DNA from: a virus | Taxonomy: Duplodnaviria; Caudoviricetes | DNA length: 45,798 nucleotides | Direction: 5' to 3' (one strand) | Virus record (IMG/VR): IMGVR_UViG_3300031890_000019 | Span: 1-45,798 of that record | Shown here: one piece after another, positions 9,612 through 30,940 of the stretch | How positions within the stretch are numbered: position 1 is the first letter of the stretch | Layout: every line of letters starts with the position of its first letter | Program-made: the position numbers and the translations under genes | Notes under the pieces: generated by a model | What the model saw: only the letters and a program-made list of their open reading frames with translations | The model's database searches: none | What the model was told of the DNA's origin: nothing

Positions 9612-9942
9612 TCAACGCGAAGCGATCCTCCGGTGCATGTGGAAAGACGGCGCATCGGCCAGCATCATCGGCGACGAGCTTGGTATCACACGCAATGCGG
9701 TGATTGGCAAAGTGCACCGGCTCGGGCTCGAGGCTCGGCTGCCAACCTTCAAACACACCAGTCGGATCGCGCCGATAGGAAGGCCGATCAGCAAGCCGCC
9801 ACAGCGGATCGTGAGTGTGATGACAGTGACGGTGAGCAAAAGCAAAAGCAAACCGGAACTGACCAAGGGCGAGCTACGCCGCCTGTTTGAAGAAGCGTGG
9901 CGCAATACCGCAACAATGGAGAAGCGAAATGAAACTGTTTGA
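9601..9942 (+). CDS. gcrA: GcrA-family cell-cycle regulator (N-terminal HTH)
   Basis: MWSNQREAILRCMWKDGASASIIGDELGITRNAVIGKVHRLGL closely matches the GcrA N-terminus; the C-terminal Cys domain is absent. Confidence 0.85.
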   Translation: MWSNQREAILRCMWKDGASASIIGDELGITRNAVIGKVHRLGLEARLPTFKHTSRIAPIGRPISKPPQRIVSVMTVTVSKSKSKPELTKGELRRLFEEAWRNTATMEKRNETV

Positions 9943-10108
9943 AAAGACAATCACAATCCATGTCGCGAATACGGTGCCCGAGGACGAGTTCGACAATGCG
10001 CTCAATGTACTCGATGAAATCTTCGGGAAGCTGGATGATGCAACATTCAATGCCGTGAATGCCAGCGCAGTTGCTCGGCTGAACGGCTTCCGCATCGAGA
10101 TCGACTAG
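9929..10108 (+). CDS. hypothetical protein
   Basis: Preceded by GGAGAAGCGAAATG, which is also found at 10209-10222. Confidence 0.5.
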   Translation: MKLFEKTITIHVANTVPEDEFDNALNVLDEIFGKLDDATFNAVNASAVARLNGFRIEID

Positions 10109-10219
10109 CGGTAGAGAAGTGCAAAGTGCAGCAAGCGCCGCTCTAAGTCGGGCGGCGTCATGGTCGTGGGCTACTGCCACTGGACCAAAAACCTCTACTC
10201 AAACCAACGGAGAAGCGAA

Positions 10220-10456
10220 ATGCACGTTACCAAAGCAAACGTGACTAAAGCGAAACGCGCCGAGGCTAAGGCAGCCAAGGCCGTCGATGAACGGATCAAC
10301 CGCATCTACGTGCGGAATTGCTCCGGCATCCAGATCGACATCATGGACATCAGCAAGGTGTTCAAAGTCGGTCGCGAGGCCGTCAGCAAACATCCGGAAA
10401 TGAGTGTGTATCGCCAAAGGAAGGGGATAGCGGCAAGACAGGGAGCGCCGCGATGA
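10220..10456 (+). CDS. hypothetical protein
   Basis: AACGGAGAAGCGAAATG leader. Confidence 0.5.
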   Translation: MHVTKANVTKAKRAEAKAAKAVDERINRIYVRNCSGIQIDIMDISKVFKVGREAVSKHPEMSVYRQRKGIAARQGAPR

Positions 10457-10700
10457 CAACACTCGTTAACGAGCTGAGCATTCCCAACCTTGACGCCGCG
10501 ACGAATGATCCGGACGAGCGCTGGTGCATCTTGCCACCGCTCTTTCTGTCCTCGCCGCCTACGCAGACTGCAAGGCGATTGCCATGCGCTTTCGCCTTCG
10601 CGGTGAAATCGATACCGCACAGCGACATGAGAAGCGGTGCGACATGCTGTTCGACATGCTGCCGTCATCCTGGCGGTGGTGAACCAAACGGAGAAGAAAG

Positions 10701-10961
10701 ATGAGGAAAGTACTATCGCTTGCGCTCTTGGCAGCGGGCATCGTGTCTGCCAACGCGAATGACCTCTTAGACTGTATCGAACAAGCGGATTCCAACTATC
10801 ACAAAGCGTGGGTTCAGGCTTGCTACAGTCAGGAGGGCGGAGTGAACAACTTCAAAGGTTGTCTCCTTCCGCGCTACATCGCGGATCGCTTGAATAGTGA
10901 CCACAAGGAAGCTCGTGATTTCTGCTTCCAGGCGAACGCAGCGGGACTCACTGTCCGCTAA
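10701..10961 (+). CDS. small secreted protein with four cysteines
   Basis: Signal peptide MRKVLSLALLAAGIVSANA; four Cys in the mature part. Confidence 0.6.
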   Translation: MRKVLSLALLAAGIVSANANDLLDCIEQADSNYHKAWVQACYSQEGGVNNFKGCLLPRYIADRLNSDHKEARDFCFQANAAGLTVR

Positions 10962-11004
10962 AAAAAAGAGGGCCGGGGGCGGTGTCACTCGTTCCCGGCC
11001 CTTT
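10959..11004. terminator. probable bidirectional intrinsic terminator
   Basis: A-run + GAGGGCCGGG...CCCGGCCC + TTTT directly after a stop codon. Confidence 0.55.
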
Positions 11005-11141
11005 TACCCACCACCGTCCACGAAAAGGAAAGCCTCGCGGCTTTCACAACGGAGAAGTGGACGCGCGGGCTGTCGGGGTTGTTGTGGACACTCGCCGACT
11101 TGTCCGTAGAGCAATGAACCAACTTACCAACGGAGAACCCG

Positions 11142-11474
11142 ATGAGCAAGCGCGAACGAGTGGAATTACACTGGAGCGAGCGGCGTGAACTTGAGCGCAT
11201 CATTGATCGCTTTGGATTATCTCAGGCCAAGGTAGAACAAGCCCGCAGAACAATAGTTGCCACTTCCTCTGCGGATGAAATGCTCTCGGCCATCATTGAT
11301 TTGGTTGAATACCAATCAGCGCATTATGCTTGGAAAGCCTTGCGTGACACATCAAAATATCCCCAACGAATTGAAGGTTGCGCTGACGGATTGCGTGCAT
11401 TGCTGGAGTTTGACCTTCACCTTCTGCGCGAAGATCGTGTGGGATGCAAGCCCGGTGATCGTTCAGGCGATTAG
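11142..11474 (+). CDS. hypothetical protein
   Basis: AACGGAGAA RBS; 110-aa ORF. Confidence 0.5.
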   Translation: MSKRERVELHWSERRELERIIDRFGLSQAKVEQARRTIVATSSADEMLSAIIDLVEYQSAHYAWKALRDTSKYPQRIEGCADGLRALLEFDLHLLREDRVGCKPGDRSGD

Positions 11475-11485
11475 TGGGCTTGCAT

Positions 11486-11519
11486 TTAATTTGTGCAAGC
11501 ATAAAGACTCTGATAGAAT
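11486..11519 (+). promoter_or_regulatory. sigma70-type promoter overlapped by operator copy 2
   Basis: TTGTGC (11491)-N17-TAGAAT (11514) with extended TGn; TTAATTTGTGCAAGCATAAA covers the -35 element. Confidence 0.6.
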
Positions 11520-11555
11520 TTTTCTGTCAGTGAACCCAAACAACGGAGACGAAAG

Positions 11556-12431
11556 ATGAGTATCGATACGATCATCCGCTCGCGTGGCAACGACTCGCTC
11601 ACGCTTGAGGAAATGCAACGCCGGTTACCCGCGATCTTCGCGCCGCAGCCGCACGTGAGTCGCTCTGACCGCTACGTGTATGTCAGCACCGAAGACGTAA
11701 TGACGGCGCTGATGGAGAAGGGATTCGTGCCGGTCGAGGCGCGGGTCACTCGCTCCCGCGATCCGGATCGCAAGAACTACACCAAGCACATGGTCCGGAT
11801 GCGGCTCTTGGGCGAAACCGCCTTGGCCGTTGGGGATACCTTCCTTGAGGTAATTCTCCGCAACGCCCATGACGGCACCGCCGCTTACGACTTCATGGCG
11901 GGGCTGTTCAAGCTGCTGTGCCTGAATGGCATGGCCGTAGACGATGGCACCATCGCCAGCGTTCACATCCGCCATGCGGGCAACCGCGACCGGCAAATTC
12001 AGGCAGTGGTCGATGGTGCGTTTCAGATCGTTGAACACGCACCCCTTGCCTTGGAAGCTCCCAAGGTATGGCCGACCATCGAGCTGACCCGCGACGAGCA
12101 GATGGCCTTTGCCGAGTCGGCGAGGACCGTTCGCTTCGGTGACAAGGAAGGCAACGTGGACACTCCGATCACGGCGGAACAACTCTTGTATGTGCGCCGT
12201 GAGGCAGATCGCGGCACTGGCCCGAACGGACGCTCCGATCTGTGGCGCACGTTCAATGTCGTGCAGGAGAACACCGTCAAGGGCGGCCTCCACGCTCGCA
12301 TTCAGAACGACCGTGGCCGTTGGCGGAATATGTCCACACGTGAGGTCAAGTCAATCGACGGCGACCTCAAACTGAACCGCGCCTTGTGGCAACTCGCCAG
12401 TGAAATGGCAAAGCTGAAAGCAGCGGCGTAG
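11556..12431 (+). CDS. DUF932/DUF945 family protein
   Basis: PAIFA..PH.SRSDRYVYVST, KHMVRMR, ILRNAHDGT, AGLFKLLCLNG, DLWRTFNVVQEN, LNRALW motifs. Confidence 0.9.
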   Translation: MSIDTIIRSRGNDSLTLEEMQRRLPAIFAPQPHVSRSDRYVYVSTEDVMTALMEKGFVPVEARVTRSRDPDRKNYTKHMVRMRLLGETALAVGDTFLEVILRNAHDGTAAYDFMAGLFKLLCLNGMAVDDGTIASVHIRHAGNRDRQIQAVVDGAFQIVEHAPLALEAPKVWPTIELTRDEQMAFAESARTVRFGDKEGNVDTPITAEQLLYVRREADRGTGPNGRSDLWRTFNVVQENTVKGGLHARIQNDRGRWRNMSTREVKSIDGDLKLNRALWQLASEMAKLKAAA

Positions 12432-12617
12432 GAAGCGGCGAACCGAGGCGGTTTCCGTTTCTCCGTTGACCGCCCCGCAGCGCCAGCATGGTCCAACAGC
12501 CATGCGCGGCGCGGCCCGCCGAGAGTGGCCCTTTGGTCGGAGTTTGCCCTCCTAGCCAAAGCGGCCTTCCCGGCGGGCCACTTTTCTCAACGGAGATTCA
12601 AAACAACGGAGAATCCA

Positions 12618-12839
12618 ATGAGCGCGAATGACATTCCCGCCGACATTGCCGATGCGATCTACCGGCTGCGCTACGTCGACAAGCCGATGACGCGCATCGA
12701 GCGCGCATTCCTGTGTGGTGTGCTGTGCGCCATGCAAATGATGAACCTCTCTGAGAAACTAAAAACTCAGGAGGATGCCGACATGGCGCAGATCATACCA
12801 TTCCCCAAAAAACCAACGGAGCCCGACGATGCTGGTTGA
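12618..12839 (+). CDS. hypothetical protein
   Basis: AACGGAGAA RBS; AQIIPFP motif common in alphaproteobacterial phage proteins. Confidence 0.5.
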   Translation: MSANDIPADIADAIYRLRYVDKPMTRIERAFLCGVLCAMQMMNLSEKLKTQEDADMAQIIPFPKKPTEPDDAG

Positions 12840-19931: not shown

Positions 19932-20924
19932 ATGCTAGTAAAGACGATCACCGCATTGAACGTGCAGGAGTGGGATGGCGAGCCAATCAAGAGGCCGGGA
20001 ATTTACTCTGGTATCCCGCTCGATCTCTATCATTCGGCAGAGATTTGTGTTGAACCGAGCATATCGTCTTCGGGATTGCGCTTGATCTACAGTCCATTCC
20101 CGTGGGTGAAGGCGAGCCCCGCGCATTATTGGTGCCAGAGCCCGTACAATCCCGATGCCGAAGAAGATGTGGACGAGAAGGAAGCGTTCATTCTTGGCCG
20201 CGCCGCACATCATCTGCTGTTTGGCGAAGCGGCATTCGATGAACTCTTTGTCGTGCGACCGGCCACCATCAACGGCGAGGCGTGGCACGGCAACAAAACT
20301 ATCTGCAAGCTGTGGCTGGAAAAGCAGCGTGACGCCGGTCTCTGCGTTCTCACGCCGGATCATCTGAAACGCATCAAGGGAATTGCGCGTGAGCTAGCGA
20401 AAGAGCCGCTGATAAATGATCCGGAAGGAAAGCGATCCGGCATTCTGAACGGCTACATCGAGCATTCGTGGTTCTTCAAGCATCGTACCGGAGTCTGGAT
20501 CAAGGTGCGGCCCGACGCGACGCCGAATGACAGTCTGGATTTTGTCGATCTTAAACTCACCAGATCGATCCTGTGGCCCGACATGCAACGCACGATCCGC
20601 GACTACGGCTATTGGATGCAAGCCGGGCTCACGGCGATGGCCGTGAAGGCGATCCTCGGCCAGCCAGTCAACTCCTATTCGTATGTATTTGCCGAGAACG
20701 CGGAGCCGCATTGCATCGATTTCGTCACGCTCAAAGAGAATGAGATTGGTCGAGGCGTCCAAGCCTGCGAGATTGCGATCAGCATCTTCGCCAAGTGTAT
20801 GCGCGAGAGGCGATGGCCTGGGCCGCGCGGCGACCGTGCCGATGCGCAGTTTATTGAGATGCAAGAGGCAGATCAAAAACGAATTGACGAAACCCTAGCG
20901 CAGGATCGGAGGAATAGTAAATGA
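19932..20924 (+). CDS. RecE/exonuclease VIII-like PD-(D/E)XK nuclease (DUF3799 type)
   Basis: PGIY.GIP...YH, ISSSGL, GRAAH, KVRPD, VDLK, YGY.MQA motifs. Confidence 0.9.
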   Translation: MLVKTITALNVQEWDGEPIKRPGIYSGIPLDLYHSAEICVEPSISSSGLRLIYSPFPWVKASPAHYWCQSPYNPDAEEDVDEKEAFILGRAAHHLLFGEAAFDELFVVRPATINGEAWHGNKTICKLWLEKQRDAGLCVLTPDHLKRIKGIARELAKEPLINDPEGKRSGILNGYIEHSWFFKHRTGVWIKVRPDATPNDSLDFVDLKLTRSILWPDMQRTIRDYGYWMQAGLTAMAVKAILGQPVNSYSYVFAENAEPHCIDFVTLKENEIGRGVQACEIAISIFAKCMRERRWPGPRGDRADAQFIEMQEADQKRIDETLAQDRRNSK

Positions 20925-21355
20925 TGGCGGCCCTTCATCGATTGAAACCCAAGAAGCGGATACTGCCATCGCGGGCCGACTACTACTCCCTTGTCAACCT
21001 GGCGACGAATGTCGGCCCACCCTTTGACGGCGGCCACCTCAGGAGTGTGACCCAATGTTGCATTGCCGCCATCAACGGGCCGACCAAAAACCGATTGCTC
21101 GCCAAAGATCGCAAGTCGGCCCGATCTTTTTTGGACGGCAACCACGTACATTCTGAACCCCATGTTCAAGGTGTTGCTGTCCGGGCCGACCACTTTGTTG
21201 GTGCAATCCATATCTCGGATGTCGGCCCGATCTTTTCGACGGCCACTAGGCGCTTGTTCACCAGGAGCATCGTGCCGTCATGCGGGCCGACCAGAACAGT
21301 GGTGCCAACCATTCCCCCGCTGTCGGCCCGTCCTTTTCAAAATAGGAGAGTGTGA
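20921..21355 (+). CDS. ORF spanning the entire TIGR array (may be translated; protein function doubtful)
   Basis: GGAGG at 20908-20912, ATGA overlap with the recE stop, and its TGA overlaps the next start. Confidence 0.3.
   Translation: MMAALHRLKPKKRILPSRADYYSLVNLATNVGPPFDGGHLRSVTQCCIAAINGPTKNRLLAKDRKSARSFLDGNHVHSEPHVQGVAVRADHFVGAIHISDVGPIFSTATRRLFTRSIVPSCGPTRTVVPTIPPLSARPFQNRRV
20923..21330 (+). ncRNA. TIGR-type stem-loop guide array, 8 units
   Basis: Each unit is stem-CCA-N9-TG-N4-CCA-N9-TG-stem, e.g. GGGCCGA CCA CTTTGTTGG TG CAAT CCA TATCTCGGA TG TCGGCCC. Units at 20923, 20973, 21024, 21076, 21133, 21183, 21238, 21283. Confidence 0.9.
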
Positions 21356-22122
21356 TGAAAGAGAAAGAGAAAGAAACTGCGATGTCCGCCGCGATGAAAC
21401 GCGCCGGTCTAAATGTTGTAACGTCGGCACTCTATGTCGCCGCCGTCGAAGCCCTGCGTGAACGCTCGCTACCGGAGGCGCTGCGGATATTCACCAAACA
21501 ACTGCTGGCGAAACGGCAATTGTTAGACGCACTTGCCTTGCCATATCTGCAGGACGTGGCGAGCGATATGAAAAAGCCCGGCCATTCAAGCAATGATGAA
21601 ACCACAACACCGGCGCCGGGCCTAAGTGGCGGCCCTTTGGCTGATGAAGCCCCCAAACATGCTGCCGCCAAGGACGACCGCCAACCGCCGGCTGCGACCC
21701 AATGGACCACTGCGGTCGTCCCCCCTATTTCCTCGAAGCGCCGCGACGCCGCCAAGCGTGCCGCCCGTGCCGAGATTGATGCGCTAGATCCGATTTTCAA
21801 AATACGCCGGATTAGCGGCACCTACATCGGCAATTTGAGATGGCGCGAATTGCAGGAAATCGCGCGTCGCAATTCATGGACCGCCGCCAAGGCACTTGAA
21901 CGCGGCACCATCGCGACGGAGAACGTCTTTCTCTGCATGAAGATTTTGAACTATGCCAAGCCGGTTGACCCTGACGCGCGTGTTCACAACATCGTGCCGC
22001 CCGCCAAGCTCTTGACGTTCATGAATGAAATCAGGATCGAGGTGCCACAGTTCATTGCCAAAGCGGAAGAAGAACACGCTCGCAGAACGCTCAATCACAG
22101 GGAGATTCAACATGCGAGCTAA
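21352..22122 (+). CDS. uncharacterised Tas-associated protein containing 3 in-frame TIGR units
   Basis: AGGAG RBS; helical N- and C-terminal parts with a low-complexity linker encoded by the units at 21576-21721. Confidence 0.7.
   Translation: MMKEKEKETAMSAAMKRAGLNVVTSALYVAAVEALRERSLPEALRIFTKQLLAKRQLLDALALPYLQDVASDMKKPGHSSNDETTTPAPGLSGGPLADEAPKHAAAKDDRQPPAATQWTTAVVPPISSKRRDAAKRAARAEIDALDPIFKIRRISGTYIGNLRWRELQEIARRNSWTAAKALERGTIATENVFLCMKILNYAKPVDPDARVHNIVPPAKLLTFMNEIRIEVPQFIAKAEEEHARRTLNHREIQHAS
21576..21721 (+). ncRNA. 3 TIGR units embedded in a CDS
   Basis: e.g. GGACGACCG CCA ACCGCCGGC TG CGAC CCA ATGGACCAC TG CGGTCGTCC (21672-21721); others at 21576-21621 (6-nt loop) and 21627-21670. Confidence 0.8.
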
Positions 22123-23269
22123 GAAAAGCCGAAGCCACCCCGGCGCTGATGCCCTGGGAGACCATGCTTCGGTTTCTAAGCGGGCCAGCCTATCTCTGAA
22201 ACCCACAGGAAGCCTGCTCGCATCTGACGGCCAGGAACGTGCTAATCTCCTCCAGCCGAGTGCCGTCAGCGGCCCAAAGGTAACTGACAACCCGTTACCT
22301 GCTGCCAACGACATCGCGGACCAACCACCGCTTGAAACCCAGCCGCCTGATGTCCGCGATGTCGTCCTTTCCATTCGTATCGCACATCGTCGTCGCCGTT
22401 ATGCCTTAAAGCAGCAGCAAGGCGTGGATCGCCGCTGCGAGGGCTATGTCAGATCGAACTACACAAACTGGCACCCTGAAATGAAGGATGATGACCGCGA
22501 GCGTATCCACAAGGAAGTCGAAGCGCATCTGAACCGCGCACGATCCGGCGAGCATGAGGATGCTGGCCTCATTGATCTTGTACGTGTTACCGACGAGATG
22601 CGCGCCCCAGTCGACCGGATTAGGTCACAACAAGAGAAGTTGATGGAGAAGCTAGCGGCGCAACTTCCTGGCTATGACTTTGTAAAATCTGTTTCCGGTG
22701 CTGGTGGTATCGGGTTTGCGACGATTGTTGCGGAATGCTCGGGACTTGATCGCGTGACTGGCGAGATCACGACACTTGATGATTATCCCCATTGGATGAA
22801 GGTGTGGAAGCGGCTCGGCTTCGCGCCTTACGAGGGCTTCGCCGGTTCCACTTGGAAGCGAGAAAAATGGCGACCACGCTCGTTGTCATCGGACGAATGG
22901 ATCAAGAATCCGTTCGCAGGTGAACGCTATGCGTTAATGATTATGATCGCCGATTCCCTGTTTCGTAAGCAGTGGCAAAGTGCCGAGAAGGCTGGCGCAG
23001 ACGAAGGCAAGCCGACCGGCCCTTATGGTCAGTGCTATGCAGATCGGCGGCGAGTAACCGCAGTCACGCATGGCGATTGGAGCAAGCAACACAGTCACCG
23101 TGATGCTCTCAGGGTAATGATGAAACAATATCTGAAAGACCTGTGGAGCGCATGGAGGAAAGATAGCAAGACGGCCGGTCAATATCTGACAGCCACCGAT
23201 CATGTGCCGTCTGCCGCGCCCGGCCAAGCCCCGATTGAAAACCACCGATCAGTTGCCGGGCGCACTTAA
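22112..23269 (+). CDS. TasA-like Nop-domain RNA-binding protein (IS110/Nop-related, no nuclease domain)
   Basis: Coiled coil, then LP.YDFVKSVSGAGGIGFATIVAE, Y....KVWKRLGFAP, and C-terminal H..RDALRVMMKQYLKDLW..W. No DEDD RuvC or HNH domain. GGAG RBS before ATG 22112; flanked by TIGR units. Confidence 0.85.
   Translation: MRAKKSRSHPGADALGDHASVSKRASLSLKPTGSLLASDGQERANLLQPSAVSGPKVTDNPLPAANDIADQPPLETQPPDVRDVVLSIRIAHRRRRYALKQQQGVDRRCEGYVRSNYTNWHPEMKDDDRERIHKEVEAHLNRARSGEHEDAGLIDLVRVTDEMRAPVDRIRSQQEKLMEKLAAQLPGYDFVKSVSGAGGIGFATIVAECSGLDRVTGEITTLDDYPHWMKVWKRLGFAPYEGFAGSTWKREKWRPRSLSSDEWIKNPFAGERYALMIMIADSLFRKQWQSAEKAGADEGKPTGPYGQCYADRRRVTAVTHGDWSKQHSHRDALRVMMKQYLKDLWSAWRKDSKTAGQYLTATDHVPSAAPGQAPIENHRSVAGRT
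22126..22365 (+). ncRNA. 5 TIGR units embedded in the 5' end of the Tas gene
   Basis: Units at 22126, 22180, 22224, 22271, 22308; e.g. ACGACATCGCGGA CCA ACCACCGCT TG AAAC CCA GCCGCCTGA TG TCCGCGATGTCGT. Confidence 0.85.
23169..23263 (+). ncRNA. 2 TIGR units embedded in the 3' end of the Tas gene
   Basis: AGACGG CCG GTCAATATC TG ACAG CCA CCGATCATG TG CCGTCT and GCGCCCGG CCA AGCCCCGAT TG AAAA CCA CCGATCAGT TG CCGGGCGC. Confidence 0.85.
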
Positions 23270-23615: not shown

Positions 23616-24500
23616 ATGGCTAAAGCAGCTAAAGCGAAGAAGCCGGTCAAGGAAGAAACAGTCATTGAAATTCAGGAGATTCAAACACAGGAAGCCCGGT
23701 TCAATGTCCTCGGCACGTCGCCTCTTATCATGCACCGCTTTCCCTTCAAGGCATGGCAAGAGCTGATCCTGCCTGCCCGCAAAGAGAACCGCGCCGCGTT
23801 GGAGCAGACGCTCAAGCACTTGCCGATTGAGGAATATCGGGAGTCGTTTTATCGCAACAGCAATCCCAAGGCGAAAACGCTCTTTCATGTTCCCAACCGG
23901 ATGTTCGCTTGTGCCATTGCTCAGGCTGCCGTGGATATTCCCGGAGCTGCGCGGGCGCAGATCGAGCGGCTGACGCGGGTCACGGACATCAACATCGAGT
24001 TGTTCGGTGTCCCGCAAATCTTCTGCGCGATGGTTCGCAACTCGGGCATGAACCGAAGCCCCGATGTGCGGACGCGACCGATCTTCCCGCAATGGGGGTG
24101 TCGCGTCACCGTGCGGTTTGTCGTTCCGATCCTGACGGAAAGAAACGTGCTGCATCTGGCAGGAGCGGCGGGACTCATCGTCGGCATCGGCGATTGGCGC
24201 GGCGAGAAGGGCGGCCCTTACGGGGCGTTCCGCATCGTCAGCGATAGTGATCGTGATTTCACTCAGGTGTTGAAACAGGATCGCAGATCACAGCAATCGG
24301 CTTACGACGCGCCGGTCTATCACGACGAGGATACCGAAGCGATCTTGAGCTGGTTCGACGCGGAGCTGCGCCGTCGCGAACAGGACGGCTCGGCGCAACA
24401 GCGGCGGCGGCGCGGTAATGGACCGAAAACAAAGAAGGTCCACGTCGTCGATGGTTCGGAAAAGGATGAAACCTTTATGCGAACGGAGGCCGTGTCGTGA
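23616..24500 (+). CDS. stand-alone Cas7/RAMP-like protein
   Basis: First strand F.VLGTSPLIMH; VP..MF..AI..AA helix; RTRPIFPQW...V.V.F; C-terminal glycine-rich loop AG..VGIGDWRGEKGGPYGAF. GGAG RBS before ATG 23616. Confidence 0.75.
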   Translation: MAKAAKAKKPVKEETVIEIQEIQTQEARFNVLGTSPLIMHRFPFKAWQELILPARKENRAALEQTLKHLPIEEYRESFYRNSNPKAKTLFHVPNRMFACAIAQAAVDIPGAARAQIERLTRVTDINIELFGVPQIFCAMVRNSGMNRSPDVRTRPIFPQWGCRVTVRFVVPILTERNVLHLAGAAGLIVGIGDWRGEKGGPYGAFRIVSDSDRDFTQVLKQDRRSQQSAYDAPVYHDEDTEAILSWFDAELRRREQDGSAQQRRRRGNGPKTKKVHVVDGSEKDETFMRTEAVS

Positions 24501-24991
24501 CGAAACGGGCGGAAGCACTCACCGCCGCGATCCTTGCCTGCCGCGATAAGGATGGAAGGATCACAAAGCGCAGGGTTTTTACTGCGGCCCGCGATGACAA
24601 GAGAAGTCTACTCGGGCGACAGTTTAACTGGAATCTGCGCGAAGCGGCGGAACGACACTGGCTCGACCGTGCTGGCGAACTGATAAAGCAGTACATCACC
24701 ATCACGGTCGTCAACAAAAGCGTGAAAATCAAGTCCGTTGCCTACGTGAGAGACCCAAGACTCCCTGCACGTCAGGAAGGCTTTTGTTCTCTTGCCGACG
24801 TGGCGCAATCCGACGCCGAAAAAATCACGCTGGATGAACTTAACCGTTGCGAGAGCGCAATACTCCGGGCTCGCGCGGTAGTCGGCGTTCTTGACGCGCG
24901 CTTTCCGGGCCTAAGCGACAAACTGGAAAATGCGCTCAGTTTGCTCGTTGAAGCTCGAACTCAAATCAATAGCCGCAGGAAAGCTGCGTAA
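24497..24991 (+). CDS. partner protein translationally coupled to the Cas7-like gene
   Basis: GTGA overlap; G.IT...V..AARD...L...F.W....AA..HWL..A..LI pattern. Confidence 0.7.
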   Translation: MTKRAEALTAAILACRDKDGRITKRRVFTAARDDKRSLLGRQFNWNLREAAERHWLDRAGELIKQYITITVVNKSVKIKSVAYVRDPRLPARQEGFCSLADVAQSDAEKITLDELNRCESAILRARAVVGVLDARFPGLSDKLENALSLLVEARTQINSRRKAA

Positions 24992-25004
24992 TTTTTGTGA
25001 TTTG

Positions 25005-25500
25005 GGTCAGGTATGGCAGGCGTAGGTGGACGAGGACTGAGGAGCCCTTAGCATTGGTGAGTTGGGGGCGGTCTTGGGTCGGAAAGGCAGGTGAGGCGTG
25101 ACGAGGATTGATGAGTCTCGTCTAGGCGGCGTCGGTCGCGGGCGGCAGGTCGGGTCGGTCTTGGTCTGGTCGGTTGGGCGGGATTCGGAAGGATTTGGTG
25201 TGGCAGGCTGGTTATGGAACGGTGCGAAAGGTTGCGGCTGTTCCGGATCTGGCAAGGTGGCGCACGGAAAGGCAGGTGTGGACGGCAAGACCTGTTCGGG
25301 TCGGGCAGTGCTCGGTTGGGCAATACCGATCAGGTGGGGCAGGCAGGTCGTGGCCTGGCGCGTTGCGTTCGGGTCGGGCAGTGCTCGGTTGGGCATGTCC
25401 GTGTTCAGGTCCGTCCGGGCAGGCGAGGCGCGTAAGGCCCGTTGCGGTCAGGCTTGATACGGCTGGCTCCGGCAGGCGGGTCCCGGCAGCGCCCGGTAAA
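25005..25500 (+). repeat. G-rich 5-nt-periodic (GGY-NN) array segmented by GGCAGG; putative guide-RNA array
   Basis: GGCAGG at 25015, 25086, 25144, 25202, 25271, 25338/25342, 25418, 25471. The unit at 25202 reads GGCA + 13 pentamers: GGCTG GTTAT GGAAC GGTGC GAAAG GTTGC GGCTG TTCCG GATCT GGCAA GGTGG CGCAC GGAAA. Confidence 0.8.
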
Positions 25501-25504
25501 GATT

Positions 25505-25538
25505 ACCTAGCGGCGGCGTAAAACCTGCCGCTAGGTTT
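25505..25538 (+). terminator. hairpin closing the main pentamer array
   Basis: ACCTAGCGGCGG-loop-CTGCCGCTAGGT followed by TT. Confidence 0.5.
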
Positions 25539-25657
25539 GATGAAGTGAGGCGAGGCTAGGTCGGACGACTTGCGGCGTGGCGAGGTTTGACGCGAACAAG
25601 TCATGTCATGGCCCGGCCTCACCTGACTTCATTCAATCAAACCAACGGAGGAGAAAC

Positions 25658-26764
25658 ATGACTGACACGACGACGATTCCCCTTGAGCCACCCCTCGCGC
25701 AACAGCTCACCCGCATTGATGAGCCATTGGAGCGCAAGCGTGTCGGCGATATGAGCATCGACAAATTTGCCGGATTAAGATTCGACGAATTTAGGCAAGC
25801 TATTGAATTTGCAAAATTAATGGCGCAGGCGCATCACTCGGTTCCGGCTTATCTTAAACAGAATCCCGGTGATTGTCTCGCCATCGTCACGCAAGCTCTG
25901 CGTTGGCATTTAGAACCCTATTGGGTCGCGCAGCATTCCTACATCGCCAAAGCCGAAGCGCTGATTGCCTACGATGCTGCTGTTCATGCTGCCATTGTGA
26001 TCAGCTCGCCGCTGCTGAAAACGCGACCGCGCTACACGTTCAATGGTGAAGGCGAGGAGCGGACTTGCACTGTGAGCGCACACATCGTCGGCGAAGCTCA
26101 TCCGCACGAATACACCACCCCGCCGCTCAGCCAATGCCGTCCGCCCAAGAATGCGGAAGGCGTGGTCAAAGGCTCACCGCTGTGGGTGAAAGATAGTGAT
26201 CAACAACTTTGTTATTACGGGATTCGGAGTTGGGGCAGGCGTCACACTCCGGAGCTGCTCGGCGGCGTCTATGACCGTGAGGAATTTGCCGAAACGACAC
26301 AGGACGAAATCGACGTCACCCCGCCGTCACCGAACCTGATGCAGCGCCTCCCCGGCAAGATGGCGGCCGTGGCAGGCTTCCAGGCGGACGTGGTGGACAA
26401 CGGACTCGCCAAGGAAGCGGCGAATCTGCAAGAGGCGAAAACCGGCGAAAAGAAGGCCCGCAAATCAACAGAGAAGGCCCAGCAAGAGCCAAAAGCGGTC
26501 GAAGGCTCCCCACCTGCCTCCGACGCCGGAAAACCCACTGCCGGGCCTTCCCCTCCCCCGAGCACAGCCGATGAATATGTGGCCTACGCTATCGACTGGA
26601 TTTCCAAGGCTGTCGATGCGGATGAGGTTCAAGCCCGCTTTGACGCTGAAATGGAAATGCGGCGGAAGCTTGCCGTGCCGCTGCCGCAGCGCAAGCAGTT
26701 GAACGGAGCGGCGCTCAACAAGGCCGCCGAGCTACGGAAGAAGCCTAAGAAGGGCACCAAATAG
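25658..26764 (+). CDS. recT: RecT-family single-strand annealing protein
   Basis: NPGDCLAIVTQALRWHLEPYWVAQ, PLW..D.DQQL.Y...R.W.R...PE.L.GVY..EE; same operon as the RecE-like nuclease; GGAGG RBS before ATG 25658. Confidence 0.8.
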   Translation: MTDTTTIPLEPPLAQQLTRIDEPLERKRVGDMSIDKFAGLRFDEFRQAIEFAKLMAQAHHSVPAYLKQNPGDCLAIVTQALRWHLEPYWVAQHSYIAKAEALIAYDAAVHAAIVISSPLLKTRPRYTFNGEGEERTCTVSAHIVGEAHPHEYTTPPLSQCRPPKNAEGVVKGSPLWVKDSDQQLCYYGIRSWGRRHTPELLGGVYDREEFAETTQDEIDVTPPSPNLMQRLPGKMAAVAGFQADVVDNGLAKEAANLQEAKTGEKKARKSTEKAQQEPKAVEGSPPASDAGKPTAGPSPPPSTADEYVAYAIDWISKAVDADEVQARFDAEMEMRRKLAVPLPQRKQLNGAALNKAAELRKKPKKGTK

Positions 26765-27913: not shown

Positions 27914-30900
27914 TCATGCGAGCCAATCTGCTGTTGGTTCGCCGAATTGCTCTTTCGTCCATCCGCTCATTGATCTGAAATACGGCTCGATCTGTTTGCG
28001 ATATTGTATCCATCCCTGCCGGAACGAGATCGCCGATTGCCATAGCTGGTGTCTCTCGAAATGAGAACCGTCGACCGTCATCGGCACACCGCAAGCAATC
28101 ACCCTGACGTGCCCGAGCCTCCGCGCGACGCAGAAGGCAAACAATCCGGTTGAGCCACGCCACTCCTCACTCGCAGTGTCGTGCGTGACCGCGCTGTGTT
28201 TCCGGTGCGCCCAAACCTGCTCCGGCTTCGGAAGTCCTGCTCTCTCCCGTTCGCCCAGCCACGCGAAGTGTCCGTTCAGTTTGTCAGGATGCAGGGTGCA
28301 AGCAACCCCCGGTTCGGCAAATGATTTGATGTGATCGTTAATATAGAGGTAGCGAAACTTTTTTCCTTTAAGTAATTCCTTGGCCCGCTCAAGATCCTCG
28401 CGCCAGCACTCAGCACCGCCGACTATGACCGCTATCTCCGGCGTGAGATTAATGGGGAGCTGTCCGGCCTTGCGTGCCTCATGTGAGCAGCTCTCGATGA
28501 GATTGAACTTGTCTCCGATAACCCGGCCATGACCCTCGACACCACGCAGCACCGGATCGTCCGACTGCCCCGGCGTCCACTCCTTCACGTCATCGAATCC
28601 GGCGAAGAACAGCGTGTCGCGCATGAGCTGCGCGTTCCATGCCGTCTCGTGTCCGTGCGCGTAGATGATGGCGTGCATTGACCCGCGTTTGGTCGGACCG
28701 ACCTTCTGCCACTTGGTCGTGAACTGCCAGTAATCGCGTTCCTCACATTTAGCGATTTGCTCAAGGCTAGGAACCGTCACCCGCAGCTTGCCGCCAGGAG
28801 CCAGCACGCGCAGCGCCTCCTTGAAGAACTCGATTGCCGCCTTGTAGGGGACGTGCTCGACGCAATGCTCGATCGATATGTGGCTAGCGCTGTTATCGGG
28901 CCACGGCAGGCGCTTGGTAATGTCCACGTCAGCGTCGTGGTTCTCCCAGCCGGTCATCTTGTTGGTGCCGCAGCCCAGATTGAATCTTCTAAGCTGCGGC
29001 ATCGTTACAGGTCTGTTGGTGTTGCTGTGTTCAGCGGGCATCACCTCCTCTTTCGGTGCCTCGGGCACCGCATTCCTCTCTGCCAGCGCCATCTCCACGA
29101 ACCTTTGATAAACGCCCTGCTGGGCGCTGTTGTGCTGGTGCGTGACCCAATCGAGGTTGAGGTCGCCGATGTTGTCCTTGGTGATCTGATTGCGATCCGC
29201 ACGCAGCGCCTTCCACGGCATGAAGCGGAAATTCTGCCGCGTCATCCCGAGCTGGCCTTCAAGAATGAATTGCCTGATCCACCGTTCCGGCGTTGGCGTG
29301 GCAAACCGATTCGGCCAATCATAGCGGCGGATGAAATCGCTGCGCTTGAGGAAATCGGTGGTGAAGAACATCAGGCCGGTTTCGACCCAGCCGCTGCTCA
29401 ATCCCGGTACGCGCATTCCCTCCACGATGGTCGAAGCGATCTCGACCTTCTCTTTGCGCATCCAGTTGGTGGTATCCATCACCTTCAACCTAAACAGGCT
29501 ATCGCCCTCGATGTGCACGGCGAACTCGTAGCCGAGGCCGATGGCGATCTCTAATCCCTTGCAGAAGGCGCGGCCCCAGCCGTCACGGCCTTGCGTCGTG
29601 CTTCTGCGGCTGAGGTGCCCGATGTTGTTGGCAAAGTTGAAATACATGCAGTGATGGCGCCAGCCGTCATACGGCGTCCAATCGGCGAACTTCTTCACTG
29701 GAGACTGCGAATCGACGGCGAGGAAATCACAATCGTCATTGAGCGTCAGGTGCAGTTTCTTCCATAGATCGGTGAGACCGATGCGATCCTCACTGTCGAT
29801 ATAGAACGTGCCGAAAACCAGCGTGTTGGCATTGCGGCGGGTGCCGACAAATTCCTTCACCTTTGGCAAGGCTGCATCCATGTTAATCCGCTTATTGCAG
29901 GCATGATGCGCGCTGTGGCAGTCACAGGGATTGATTGTGTCAATCGGCAGCGTCGGAGCCAAGTGCGCGCCGACGCGCTGTGTCGTGCGATAACTCTCGC
30001 GCCCGCCATAGACCACGATCACTGGCGTGCCCACGGACTGCGCCAGGACCGGAGCAAAACCGGCATTGCAGAATATCAGATTTGCAGCAGAGAACAGCGC
30101 CGCCATTTCCGGAAAGTCTAGCTCGCCCTTGTGAAGCTTGACATCGGCCTCTTGCTCGGGGCCTTCGATCCACTCTCGGCCCGGCGCCAGATCGGCGATG
30201 CTGACGACAAAGAATTGCTGCCTGATTGAATTGTAAAGATCGTGATAGTGCTGCGGATCGGGATTGCGCGTGCGTCCGTTCCATTCTGTGCGCAGCACTA
30301 CCGGACGGTGAACCATCAGCGGCCTGCCATTGGTGTTCCATGTGCTGAGGTATTTGTCGCGGACGATATTGCTCCACTCGGGTTTGATGGGCAGGCTGAA
30401 ATCCGGCTTCTGCGGCATCTTCAATCCGGCGCAACTGAACATCGCTTCAAGAATGCTACCGTGCTGGTCAACGAGAACCTTGGGATAGCCGATGTTGAAT
30501 TGCCGTGCGTTGCGCGGCGGCGGAGGAAAGGTGAACAAGTGCTGTTCGCGGGCGATGGTCTTGGCCTGTGCGTGCAGCGATGTCGGCCGCATAATCAGCT
30601 TGAGGCCGCGCTCGATCAGATCGTGATAGAGGTAGTAGTGACAGGTACGAAGCCAGACATCGTTCTGCTTCATCAGCTCCCGCATCAGGGCGCGTTGATG
30701 CAGCGCATCGCCGATGCCGAAGTGCCCCGTCACCACCAGCGGCGCTCCCGACGGCACGGCCTGCTTGGGGACATTCGATTCCATCTGAATGACCATGTCG
30801 TCACGCAGCAACAATTGGCTCAAAGTGCCCTCGTTCAAGTTCACCCTGACGCTGCCGCCCGGCGGTATCGTGACCTCGCTGTTACCGGCGTTATAAATAA

Positions 30901-30940
30901 CACGCGGTGACGGCGATATGTTCTGAACCGTGCAGATCAT
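27914..30940 (-). CDS. multidomain glycosyltransferase/methyltransferase
   Basis: GT9-like (GIGDAL...HKGEL...AALFSAANLIFCNAGFAPVLAQSVGTPVIVVYG); second GT-A-like region (VHIEGDS); class I MTase (NLGCG, HCVEHV, RVLAPGGKLRVTVP); C-terminal Rossmann-like domain (IVGGA, GSTGLFA, LG..RVIACGVPM). Confidence 0.75.
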   Translation of the reverse strand: MICTVQNISPSPRVIYNAGNSEVTIPPGGSVRVNLNEGTLSQLLLRDDMVIQMESNVPKQAVPSGAPLVVTGHFGIGDALHQRALMRELMKQNDVWLRTCHYYLYHDLIERGLKLIMRPTSLHAQAKTIAREQHLFTFPPPPRNARQFNIGYPKVLVDQHGSILEAMFSCAGLKMPQKPDFSLPIKPEWSNIVRDKYLSTWNTNGRPLMVHRPVVLRTEWNGRTRNPDPQHYHDLYNSIRQQFFVVSIADLAPGREWIEGPEQEADVKLHKGELDFPEMAALFSAANLIFCNAGFAPVLAQSVGTPVIVVYGGRESYRTTQRVGAHLAPTLPIDTINPCDCHSAHHACNKRINMDAALPKVKEFVGTRRNANTLVFGTFYIDSEDRIGLTDLWKKLHLTLNDDCDFLAVDSQSPVKKFADWTPYDGWRHHCMYFNFANNIGHLSRRSTTQGRDGWGRAFCKGLEIAIGLGYEFAVHIEGDSLFRLKVMDTTNWMRKEKVEIASTIVEGMRVPGLSSGWVETGLMFFTTDFLKRSDFIRRYDWPNRFATPTPERWIRQFILEGQLGMTRQNFRFMPWKALRADRNQITKDNIGDLNLDWVTHQHNSAQQGVYQRFVEMALAERNAVPEAPKEEVMPAEHSNTNRPVTMPQLRRFNLGCGTNKMTGWENHDADVDITKRLPWPDNSASHISIEHCVEHVPYKAAIEFFKEALRVLAPGGKLRVTVPSLEQIAKCEERDYWQFTTKWQKVGPTKRGSMHAIIYAHGHETAWNAQLMRDTLFFAGFDDVKEWTPGQSDDPVLRGVEGHGRVIGDKFNLIESCSHEARKAGQLPINLTPEIAVIVGGAECWREDLERAKELLKGKKFRYLYINDHIKSFAEPGVACTLHPDKLNGHFAWLGERERAGLPKPEQVWAHRKHSAVTHDTASEEWRGSTGLFAFCVARRLGHVRVIACGVPMTVDGSHFERHQLWQSAISFRQGWIQYRKQIEPYFRSMSGWTKEQFGEPTADWLA

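Follow-up and report, generated by a model that had tools for sequence, protein, structure and literature searches.

A staggered-array VIPR locus in a soil phage with guides predicted to address tyrosine integrase genes

VIPR, an RNA-guided DNA silencer, was first described in 2026 (10.64898/2026.04.26.720920). In the SUSP1 system, according to the accessible portions of the original reports (10.64898/2026.04.26.720920; 10.64898/2026.04.26.720927), one Vipr subunit binds each guide pentamer, holding GGY while the NN dinucleotide reads DNA, and the target is silenced without cutting; residues R138, D177, W178 and R179 contact GGY in the SUSP1 Vipr cryo-EM structure, as given in the accessible part of 10.64898/2026.04.26.720927. 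'Staggered' arrays, with an overlap of 1 nt between tracts, appear in the legend to fig. S18 of 10.64898/2026.04.26.720920. The accessible text of 10.64898/2026.10.15.759431 reports that SUSP1 VIPR blocks excision of the F5 satellite via its recombinase gene and requires vap1; the words 'staggered', 'indel' and 'TIGR' have no occurrence in its main text, as far as this is accessible. Experiments in the accessible parts of the 2026 preprints mostly concern type II, types III and V being represented by small-RNA sequencing only. Cas7 proteins of class 1 CRISPR systems (Csm3/Cmr4) have the same RAMP fold as the protein described below, and Cas7 polymerises on guide RNA; the present locus, unlike theirs, has no other cas genes or repeat-spacer array, and its code is non-contiguous.

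The locus (Table 1) is contained in the viral record IMGVR_UViG_3300031890_000019, whose 45,798 nt constitute the window analyzed here. Terminase, tape-measure, RecE-like and RecT-like genes are recognized in the record, and its completeness is estimated at 60%. The virus is present in soil metagenomes of at least 21 studies; no RNA dataset containing the locus is listed among the 24 sequencing runs, and the contigs of runs X4 and X8 leave parts of the array uncovered. The 294-aa and coupled 164-aa open reading frames proposed in the initial annotation are correctly placed, and the peptides GTSPLIMH and GIGDWRGEKGG, cited there as RAMP/Cas7 hallmarks, are both present. The vipr gene is preceded by GGAGA, 6 nt before its ATG, and the GTG start of the partner gene overlaps the vipr TGA. 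Pfam, PADLOC and Rfam return no match for the two genes and the array. The absence of cas genes and of a CRISPR array, claimed initially, is borne out by the PADLOC cas models, with 0 matches among the 44 ORFs scanned in this approximately 60% complete record, and by the 20 largest of the 29 direct-repeat families in the window, none of which forms a CRISPR-like array. Within the record, then, the further cas genes and repeat-spacer array that characterize class 1 CRISPR-Cas are both missing.

Table 1. Position and character of the features of the VIPR locus and its surroundings in the window.
Feature	Position	Strand	Remarks
RecE-like exonuclease gene	19932-20924		Neighbor; with the RecT-like gene flanks the VIPR/TIGR island
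Stem-loop TIGR array, 13 units	21034..23260	+	stem-CCA-9 nt-TG-4 nt-CCA-9 nt-TG-stem
Tas-like Nop-domain gene	22112..23269	+	Open from 22025; ATG at 22112 overlaps the upstream stop and is the likely start
vipr gene, 294 aa	23616..24500	+	RAMP/RRM core at residues 22-210, conserved helical extension at ~210-258, variable tail
vap-like accessory gene, 164 aa	24497..24991	+	Translationally coupled; N-terminal alpha/beta part, C-terminal two-helix hairpin
Staggered vrRNA array	25005..25499	+	Periodicity and parsing of pentamers
Tract G2, 11 units	25090..25143	+	Resembles a lambda-type portal motif weakly; unconfirmed
Tract G4, 13 regular units	25206..25270	+	Antisense fits integrase VPLSxQA
Tract G5, 13 units, including two 4-nt units	25275..25337	+	Antisense reading corresponds to integrase box II (PWRLHDLRR)
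Tract G6, 15 units (one of 6 nt)	25342..25417	+	Antisense fits WTIHDLRR
3' end: 14-bp hairpin, then long hairpin	25505..25636	+	Long hairpin formed by a pentamer tract (from 25534) and its antisense copy
RecT-like ssDNA annealing gene	25658..26764	+	Neighbor directly 3' of the array

A profile of 120 homologues of the 294-aa protein has SUSP1 Vipr (36pp; E=5.7e-8) as its sole significant match in the PDB, over the thumb-to-G-loop stretch, so that the name VIPR, suggested with reservation in the initial annotation, proves correct. In this alignment SUSP1 R138/D177/W178/R179 correspond to R154/D193/W194/R195, which are kept in 98-100% of the 120 rows; the equivalent of SUSP1 H17, H40, is conserved in merely 47% of the family. 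The AlphaFold model (pLDDT 87.5) matches Csm3, Csm, Cmr and Cas7-11 chains, the best match being to a Csm-complex chain (VIA Z 10.5, rmsd 3.6, 149 residues aligned). The structure prediction and Foldseek search proposed for positions 23616-24500 thus return a RAMP fold, and 'Cas7-like' holds as a description of the fold and fails as a family label, the family being Vipr. By sequence comparison the 294-aa protein is a Vipr homologue with an RRM core, a thumb and a G-loop.

The fold matches by themselves would also suit an orphan CRISPR Cas7 lying beside a low-complexity G-rich repeat, with the peptide readings presented below arising by chance. This is highly improbable, and is largely refuted: the sequence profile matches Vipr only, no Vipr chain is present in either fold-match list (Foldseek library up to April 2026), cas partners are absent, the gene pair and the array are conserved in relatives, and both the periodicity and the decoding beat shuffle controls.

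The partner protein is assigned to phrog_15946, a family without known function. Its model (pLDDT 91.8) gives generic two-helix matches alone in structure searches (Z up to 9.0), and Foldseek finds nothing at E<=0.001, with the N-terminal domain searched within the whole model. Sequence searches of the PDB return coiled coils only, and a weak, single-sequence comparison with SUSP1 agp038 gives no match. By analogy with vap1, the partner may act as a DNA-binding enhancer.

The third component had been described as about 600 nt of G-rich DNA of 5-nt periodicity following the gene pair, and it is real. Region 25005-25620 contains 43% G and 22% C versus 28% G and 29% C in the window. Its identity autocorrelation has maxima at lags 5, 10, 15 and 20 (z 5.6, 5.7, 3.4 and 4.1), none of these maxima being reached in any of 1000 dinucleotide shuffles; the lag-5 value is 0.39 versus 0.29 in the shuffles. 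This region has 21 occurrences of GGYNNGGY, versus 3.9 +/- 2.0 in shuffled sequence, and the opposite strand has one; the array region is the top-scoring 600-nt window of all 45.8 kb. The proposed GGY-NN unit is not strict: only 52% of the 97 parsed pentamers start with an exact GGY, with unit boundaries drawn by a parser favoring GGY; the corresponding values in relatives are 43-100%.

Junctions of 4 nt, GGCA, at 25015, 25086, 25144, 25202, 25271, 25338, 25342, 25418 and 25471 divide the array into tracts, the GGCA at 25342 being an in-frame unit. There are about nine tracts overall; six of the GGCA-bounded ones comprise 10-15 units and are degenerate. No single parsing frame accounts for tract 25019-25055. 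The 3' end of the array is strongly folded (z -5.4 for 25500-25540 and -7.2 for 25500-25645), the array ends of 12 relatives reaching -2.9 at best. The segment 25534-25636 includes an imperfect antisense copy following the last tract, and the resulting hairpin extends over the sequence leading to the recT ribosome-binding site. There is no support for a hammerhead at 25040-25090.

Relatives were compared at 46 Vipr loci whose downstream sequence is 1.5 kb or longer, near-duplicates and SUSP1 included. At least 12 GGYNNGGY per 300 nt are found in 40 of them, whereas 24 Tas loci have 7 at most. The expectation that homologues are always followed by periodic G-rich tracts holds for most loci and not for all; in a few relatives the array is located upstream of vipr. 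The partner gene is present in 29 of the 46. At least three GGCA-closed tracts occur in 30 of 66 loci, many of the others being short contigs; the tracts of relatives are mostly of 8-12 units. Very long staggered arrays of ~50 and ~44 tracts are carried by L011 (6640-9675) and L048 (6359-8929), and the 5.9-kb contig L071 has GGY arrays on both strands, apparently belonging to two VIPR loci.

The locus thus combines a Vipr RAMP homologue, a minimal vipr and vap phage arrangement lacking cas genes and CRISPR, and adjacent GGY/NN tracts of about 9-16 units. It shares with described VIPR systems a solo phage RAMP protein with one accessory gene, GGY/NN tracts of similar length, the DWR of the G-loop and the thumb arginine, a 1-nt wobble skip and, as in staggered arrays, a one-base overlap of tracts. 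SUSP1 Vipr has 195 aa and the protein described here 294 aa, with a conserved extension of ~50 aa. SUSP1 and type II systems carry vap1 and a repeated ~40-nt structured tail per guide, whereas here no such repeated tail is found and the tracts abut via GGCA. On every feature that can be assessed from sequence the locus is a member of VIPR, and it is not of type II, the comparison of the partner proteins being weak.

For decoding, the gap size, left open in the initial annotation, was set to the 1-nt skip of the published code: an NN pair stands for codon positions 1-2 on the antisense strand, and the wobble base is passed over. Tract G4 then reads [FL]VP[FL][RS]R[HQ]ALAV, G5 reads P[WC]R[FL][HQ][DE]LRR[RS][FL]VT, and G6 reads RG[WC]T[IM][HQ][DE]LRRAA[RS]TL. 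Tyrosine-integrase motifs therefore occur in three tracts, VPLSxQA once (G4) and HDLRR twice (G5 and G6), and the suggestion that the NN dinucleotides form a discontinuous code is supported computationally for these. One L011 tract likewise reads integrase HDLRR.

At the DNA level, a 16-base seed of G4 has 15 viral matches, of which two, at an identical site in L086/L093, lengthen to 23/26 within a gene recognized as an integrase by Pfam; the remaining ones extend to 17-21/26, one being scored in the wrong orientation. Tract G5 reaches 23/26 in the integrases of L144 (genome G001) and L145 (genome G002), in two of three alphaproteobacterial genomes, and 0 in the control. Both are arm-type integrases encoded beside primase and invertase genes. 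With a skip of 1 the best DNA sites score 23/26; skips of 0, 2 and 3 give 14-17.

Because these 23/26 sites were selected by the guides themselves, an independent profile was built from 23 integrases picked by PF13356 and not by the guides, an ORF being obtained from 23 of 29 loci. On this profile G4, G5, G6A and G6B score 21, 17, 25 and 26 bits, and 0, 3, 0 and 0 of 2000 order shuffles, respectively, do as well. A 150-protein profile centered on one G5 match gives 0 of 2000 shuffles for G4, G5 and both G6 alleles. Among 356 tracts of relatives, 11 match the integrase profile, versus 1 with the unit order reversed. The mean-best DNA score over the 23 integrase genes is a weak signal (z 2.0, 3.1, 0.9 and 2.4), and the best DNA score of G6 among them is 20/30. 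Tracts G2, G3, G7 and G9 have no match to the integrase profile, and G3, G7 and G9 have none to the other profile either. The wobble-skipping code of 1 nt is thus observed computationally for three of about nine tracts, and the integrase motif as their target appears well supported by the profile comparisons.

The proposed fixed-gap search with concatenated NN dinucleotides leads to 23/26 sites in integrase genes, but an exact target of G4, G5 or G6 was not found in the viral and genome searches. For G4 these comprised an 18-nt exact search of viral contigs and a 20-nt search of genome contigs, both without a match, and 301 genomes with 0 matches at <=3 mismatches. For G5 there was no 22-nt viral match, 0 of 301 genomes at <=2 mismatches and 0 of 10 in a second search; a search of 121 genomes gave 1 match, the already known site. 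G6 had no viral match and 0 of 101 genomes. No relatives of the L144 integrase were found in the viral scan. Distant Vipr homologues (L111 and L106) are also carried by the only two genomes in which G5 reaches 23/26; the G5 match is absent from the 120 other genomes of the family sample.

The possible target of tract G2 was sought in portal genes. Its 18/22 match to the L103 portal gene is seed-selected, and its score on a profile of 11 portals is reached by 1031 of 2000 shuffles. Four of its five top sites in the 11 independent portal genes fall on one motif, yet the scores equal those of shuffles, and the portal reading is no more than a lead. A 20/20 match of G2 in L104, off the wobble frame and in a contig of 37% GC, was taken as chance.

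No PF00589 integrase is present in the approximately 60% complete record, so, given this incompleteness, the guides would not be expected to strike their own phage. The best match of the six tract runs tested to the window itself is 13/16, and none of the six shows self-targeting.

In SUSP1 the satellite is immobilized via its recombinase, which makes silencing of integrase genes and a block of excision the most likely outcome for this locus too. By this model the array would be transcribed and processed at the GGCA junctions, and Vipr subunits would coat the guide RNA, one per pentamer, to form a filament. GGY would be gripped by the thumb and the G-loop, and NN would pair with double-stranded DNA with no cutting. 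With its integrase gene silenced, the satellite would be unable to excise and, remaining integrated, could not hijack the phage. The mechanism put forward in the initial annotation (one subunit per pentamer, GGY held, NN reading, silencing) is as published for SUSP1, and the part of it borne out at this locus is the code. In the accessible text of 10.64898/2026.10.15.759431 the SUSP1 guide against the F5 recombinase likewise reads codon positions 1-2 of the recombinase active-site region, with the wobble base skipped; the present case differs in its three guides, which by sequence correspond to two motifs of arm-type tyrosine integrases and span 13-15 codons.

Very probably, the locus is a VIPR system of the phage in which guides from a GGCA-staggered array are likely coated by Vipr subunits, with silencing of tyrosine integrase genes in satellite-like elements of the host as the predicted effect. 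A considerably less likely alternative within VIPR is that the integrase guides act on rival prophages, integrative conjugative elements or any element bearing the motif, rather than on a satellite of this phage. The integrase motifs are common to many arm-type integrases, prophage targets have been reported for the VIPR guides of P. fulva (10.64898/2026.04.26.720920), and the portal likeness of G2 would indicate a lambda-like prophage; that portal reading failed the profile test, however, and the best two G5 matches belong to integrase-primase elements of small size, whose 8-10 kb contigs show no structural gene.

The irregular units preserve the codon register. Tract G5 scores 32.9 bits when the last two bases of both its 4-nt units are read and 16.2 bits when they are dropped; on the independent profile the values are 17.1 with and 9.1 without the 4-nt units. 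One of these unit boundaries was chosen after the peptide had been seen, and the alternative reading is equaled by 36 of 2000 shuffles on the independent profile. Across its 6-nt unit G6 scores 24.5, versus 19.8 for the core.

Two alleles of G6 were found, that of the window also in L007, L009 and runs X15, X23, X24 and X5, and the other in L006 and runs X20 and X21. They differ in two NN pairs, the antisense codons changing from CT to TT and from CG to AG, and both changes are compatible with unchanged Leu (CTN/TTR) and Arg (CGN/AGR). By post hoc arithmetic the chance of such synonymous-compatible swaps is ~1 in 36, and both codon types occur at the variable G6 positions in integrases (4 genes).

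An array in decay or partly silent, with once-functional guides drifting, could account for the 52% of exact GGY starts, the 4- and 6-nt units and the unparsable stretch 25019-25055. We regard this as improbable: the degeneracy lies within the range of relatives, the irregular units hold the codon register, both genes are intact, and the changes between G6 alleles are compatible with the same peptide.

In the window allele of G6, positions 25367-25395 are a 29-nt exact copy of 25294-25322 in G5 (repeat D13), for which conversion between in-register guides would be the simplest reading. Related arrays seem to differ at their 5' guides: in contigs of X20 and X24, 25029-25177 is replaced by 94 other letters with a different upstream flank, and in X5 the sequence preceding 25178 is a different pentamer-like run. 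Six-codon Leu and Arg would allow silent escape from a wobble-blind guide, and the phage population would then track satellite escape. We tentatively suggest that the array records a rewriting of guides, in which G5 and G6 derive from one integrase guide, their codon readings were swapped by recombination, possibly by the flanking RecE/RecT, the phage population tracks satellite escape, and 4- and 6-nt units are tolerated as one codon step; together with TIGR-TasA this would form a two-code anti-parasite island. The accessible VIPR literature gives no account of the acquisition or updating of vrRNA guides; handles on this process, and on the scaffold error tolerated by Vipr, are provided by the two alleles, the 29-nt copy inside the array and the irregular units that keep register.

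The locus extends the wobble-skip code to the staggered-array clade with a longer Vipr, and its three natural guides with a nameable target motif make reporter tests easy to design. Recombinase targeting and the wobble-skip principle are already published, so the gain is incremental; judging from the accessible text of the papers, the targets of this clade may already be listed in supplementary data S3 and S4 of 10.64898/2026.04.26.720920 and in the tables of 10.64898/2026.10.15.759431.

Upstream of vipr the genome encodes a second putative RNA-guided module. Strict TIGR units number 10, versus a mean of 0.002 in 500 mononucleotide shuffles, with 0 elsewhere in the window; several lie inside the ORFs 20921-21355 and 21352-22122 and inside the tas gene, which ends ~350 bases before vipr. 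The Tas profile matches 9mty (TasR; E=3.3e-5) and TasH (E=0.02); its 281 conserved positions match only the Nop region of TasR/TasH, and the N-terminal stretch overlaps tigRNA units. Atlas places the protein in Transposase_20 clusters at 0.97. At least six TIGR units occur in 23 of 24 related viral Tas loci. This upstream locus is a TIGR-Tas system, with a Nop-domain protein and box C/D dual-spacer units, and the protein is likely TasA. Stem-loop TIGR-TasA, as described in the accessible parts of PMC12045711 and 10.64898/2026.09.09.750476, has the same organization: a Nop-domain protein and box C/D units, partly within tas, whose palindromic stems enclose two 9-nt spacers. Intragenic units are described in the accessible text of the latter. 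A 73%-identical Tas relative from a Xanthobacteraceae genome gives the only hint of the host.

TIGR-TasA is a module separate from VIPR and unlinked to it in relatives: Vipr is found at 0 of 24 related Tas loci, and Tas at 0 of 91 other Vipr loci, many of them short. Searches of 1.13 Mb with the TIGR spacers gave best matches of 14-16/18, equal to reversed controls, and no target in common with VIPR. In the literature searched, no 2026 paper was found that joins VIPR and TIGR-Tas in a phage; 10.64898/2026.10.21.760802 covers both array types, unpaired in its accessible part. The ORF at 21352-22122 encodes 256 aa of no known family, its stop overlaps the likely tas start and it has tigRNA units in its middle; it is a possible TIGR accessory gene.

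A RecE-like and/or RecT-like gene is also found in the vipr neighborhood of L035, L038, L042, L048, L056 and L080-L082. A 24-nt leader (AAC..GGAGA..ATG; repeat D3) is common to several early genes (9908-12621) and recT (25637). On the minus strand, 27914-30940 encodes a 1008-aa protein with a methyltransferase domain and apparent glycosyltransferase-type regions, possibly a DNA- or surface-modifying fusion.
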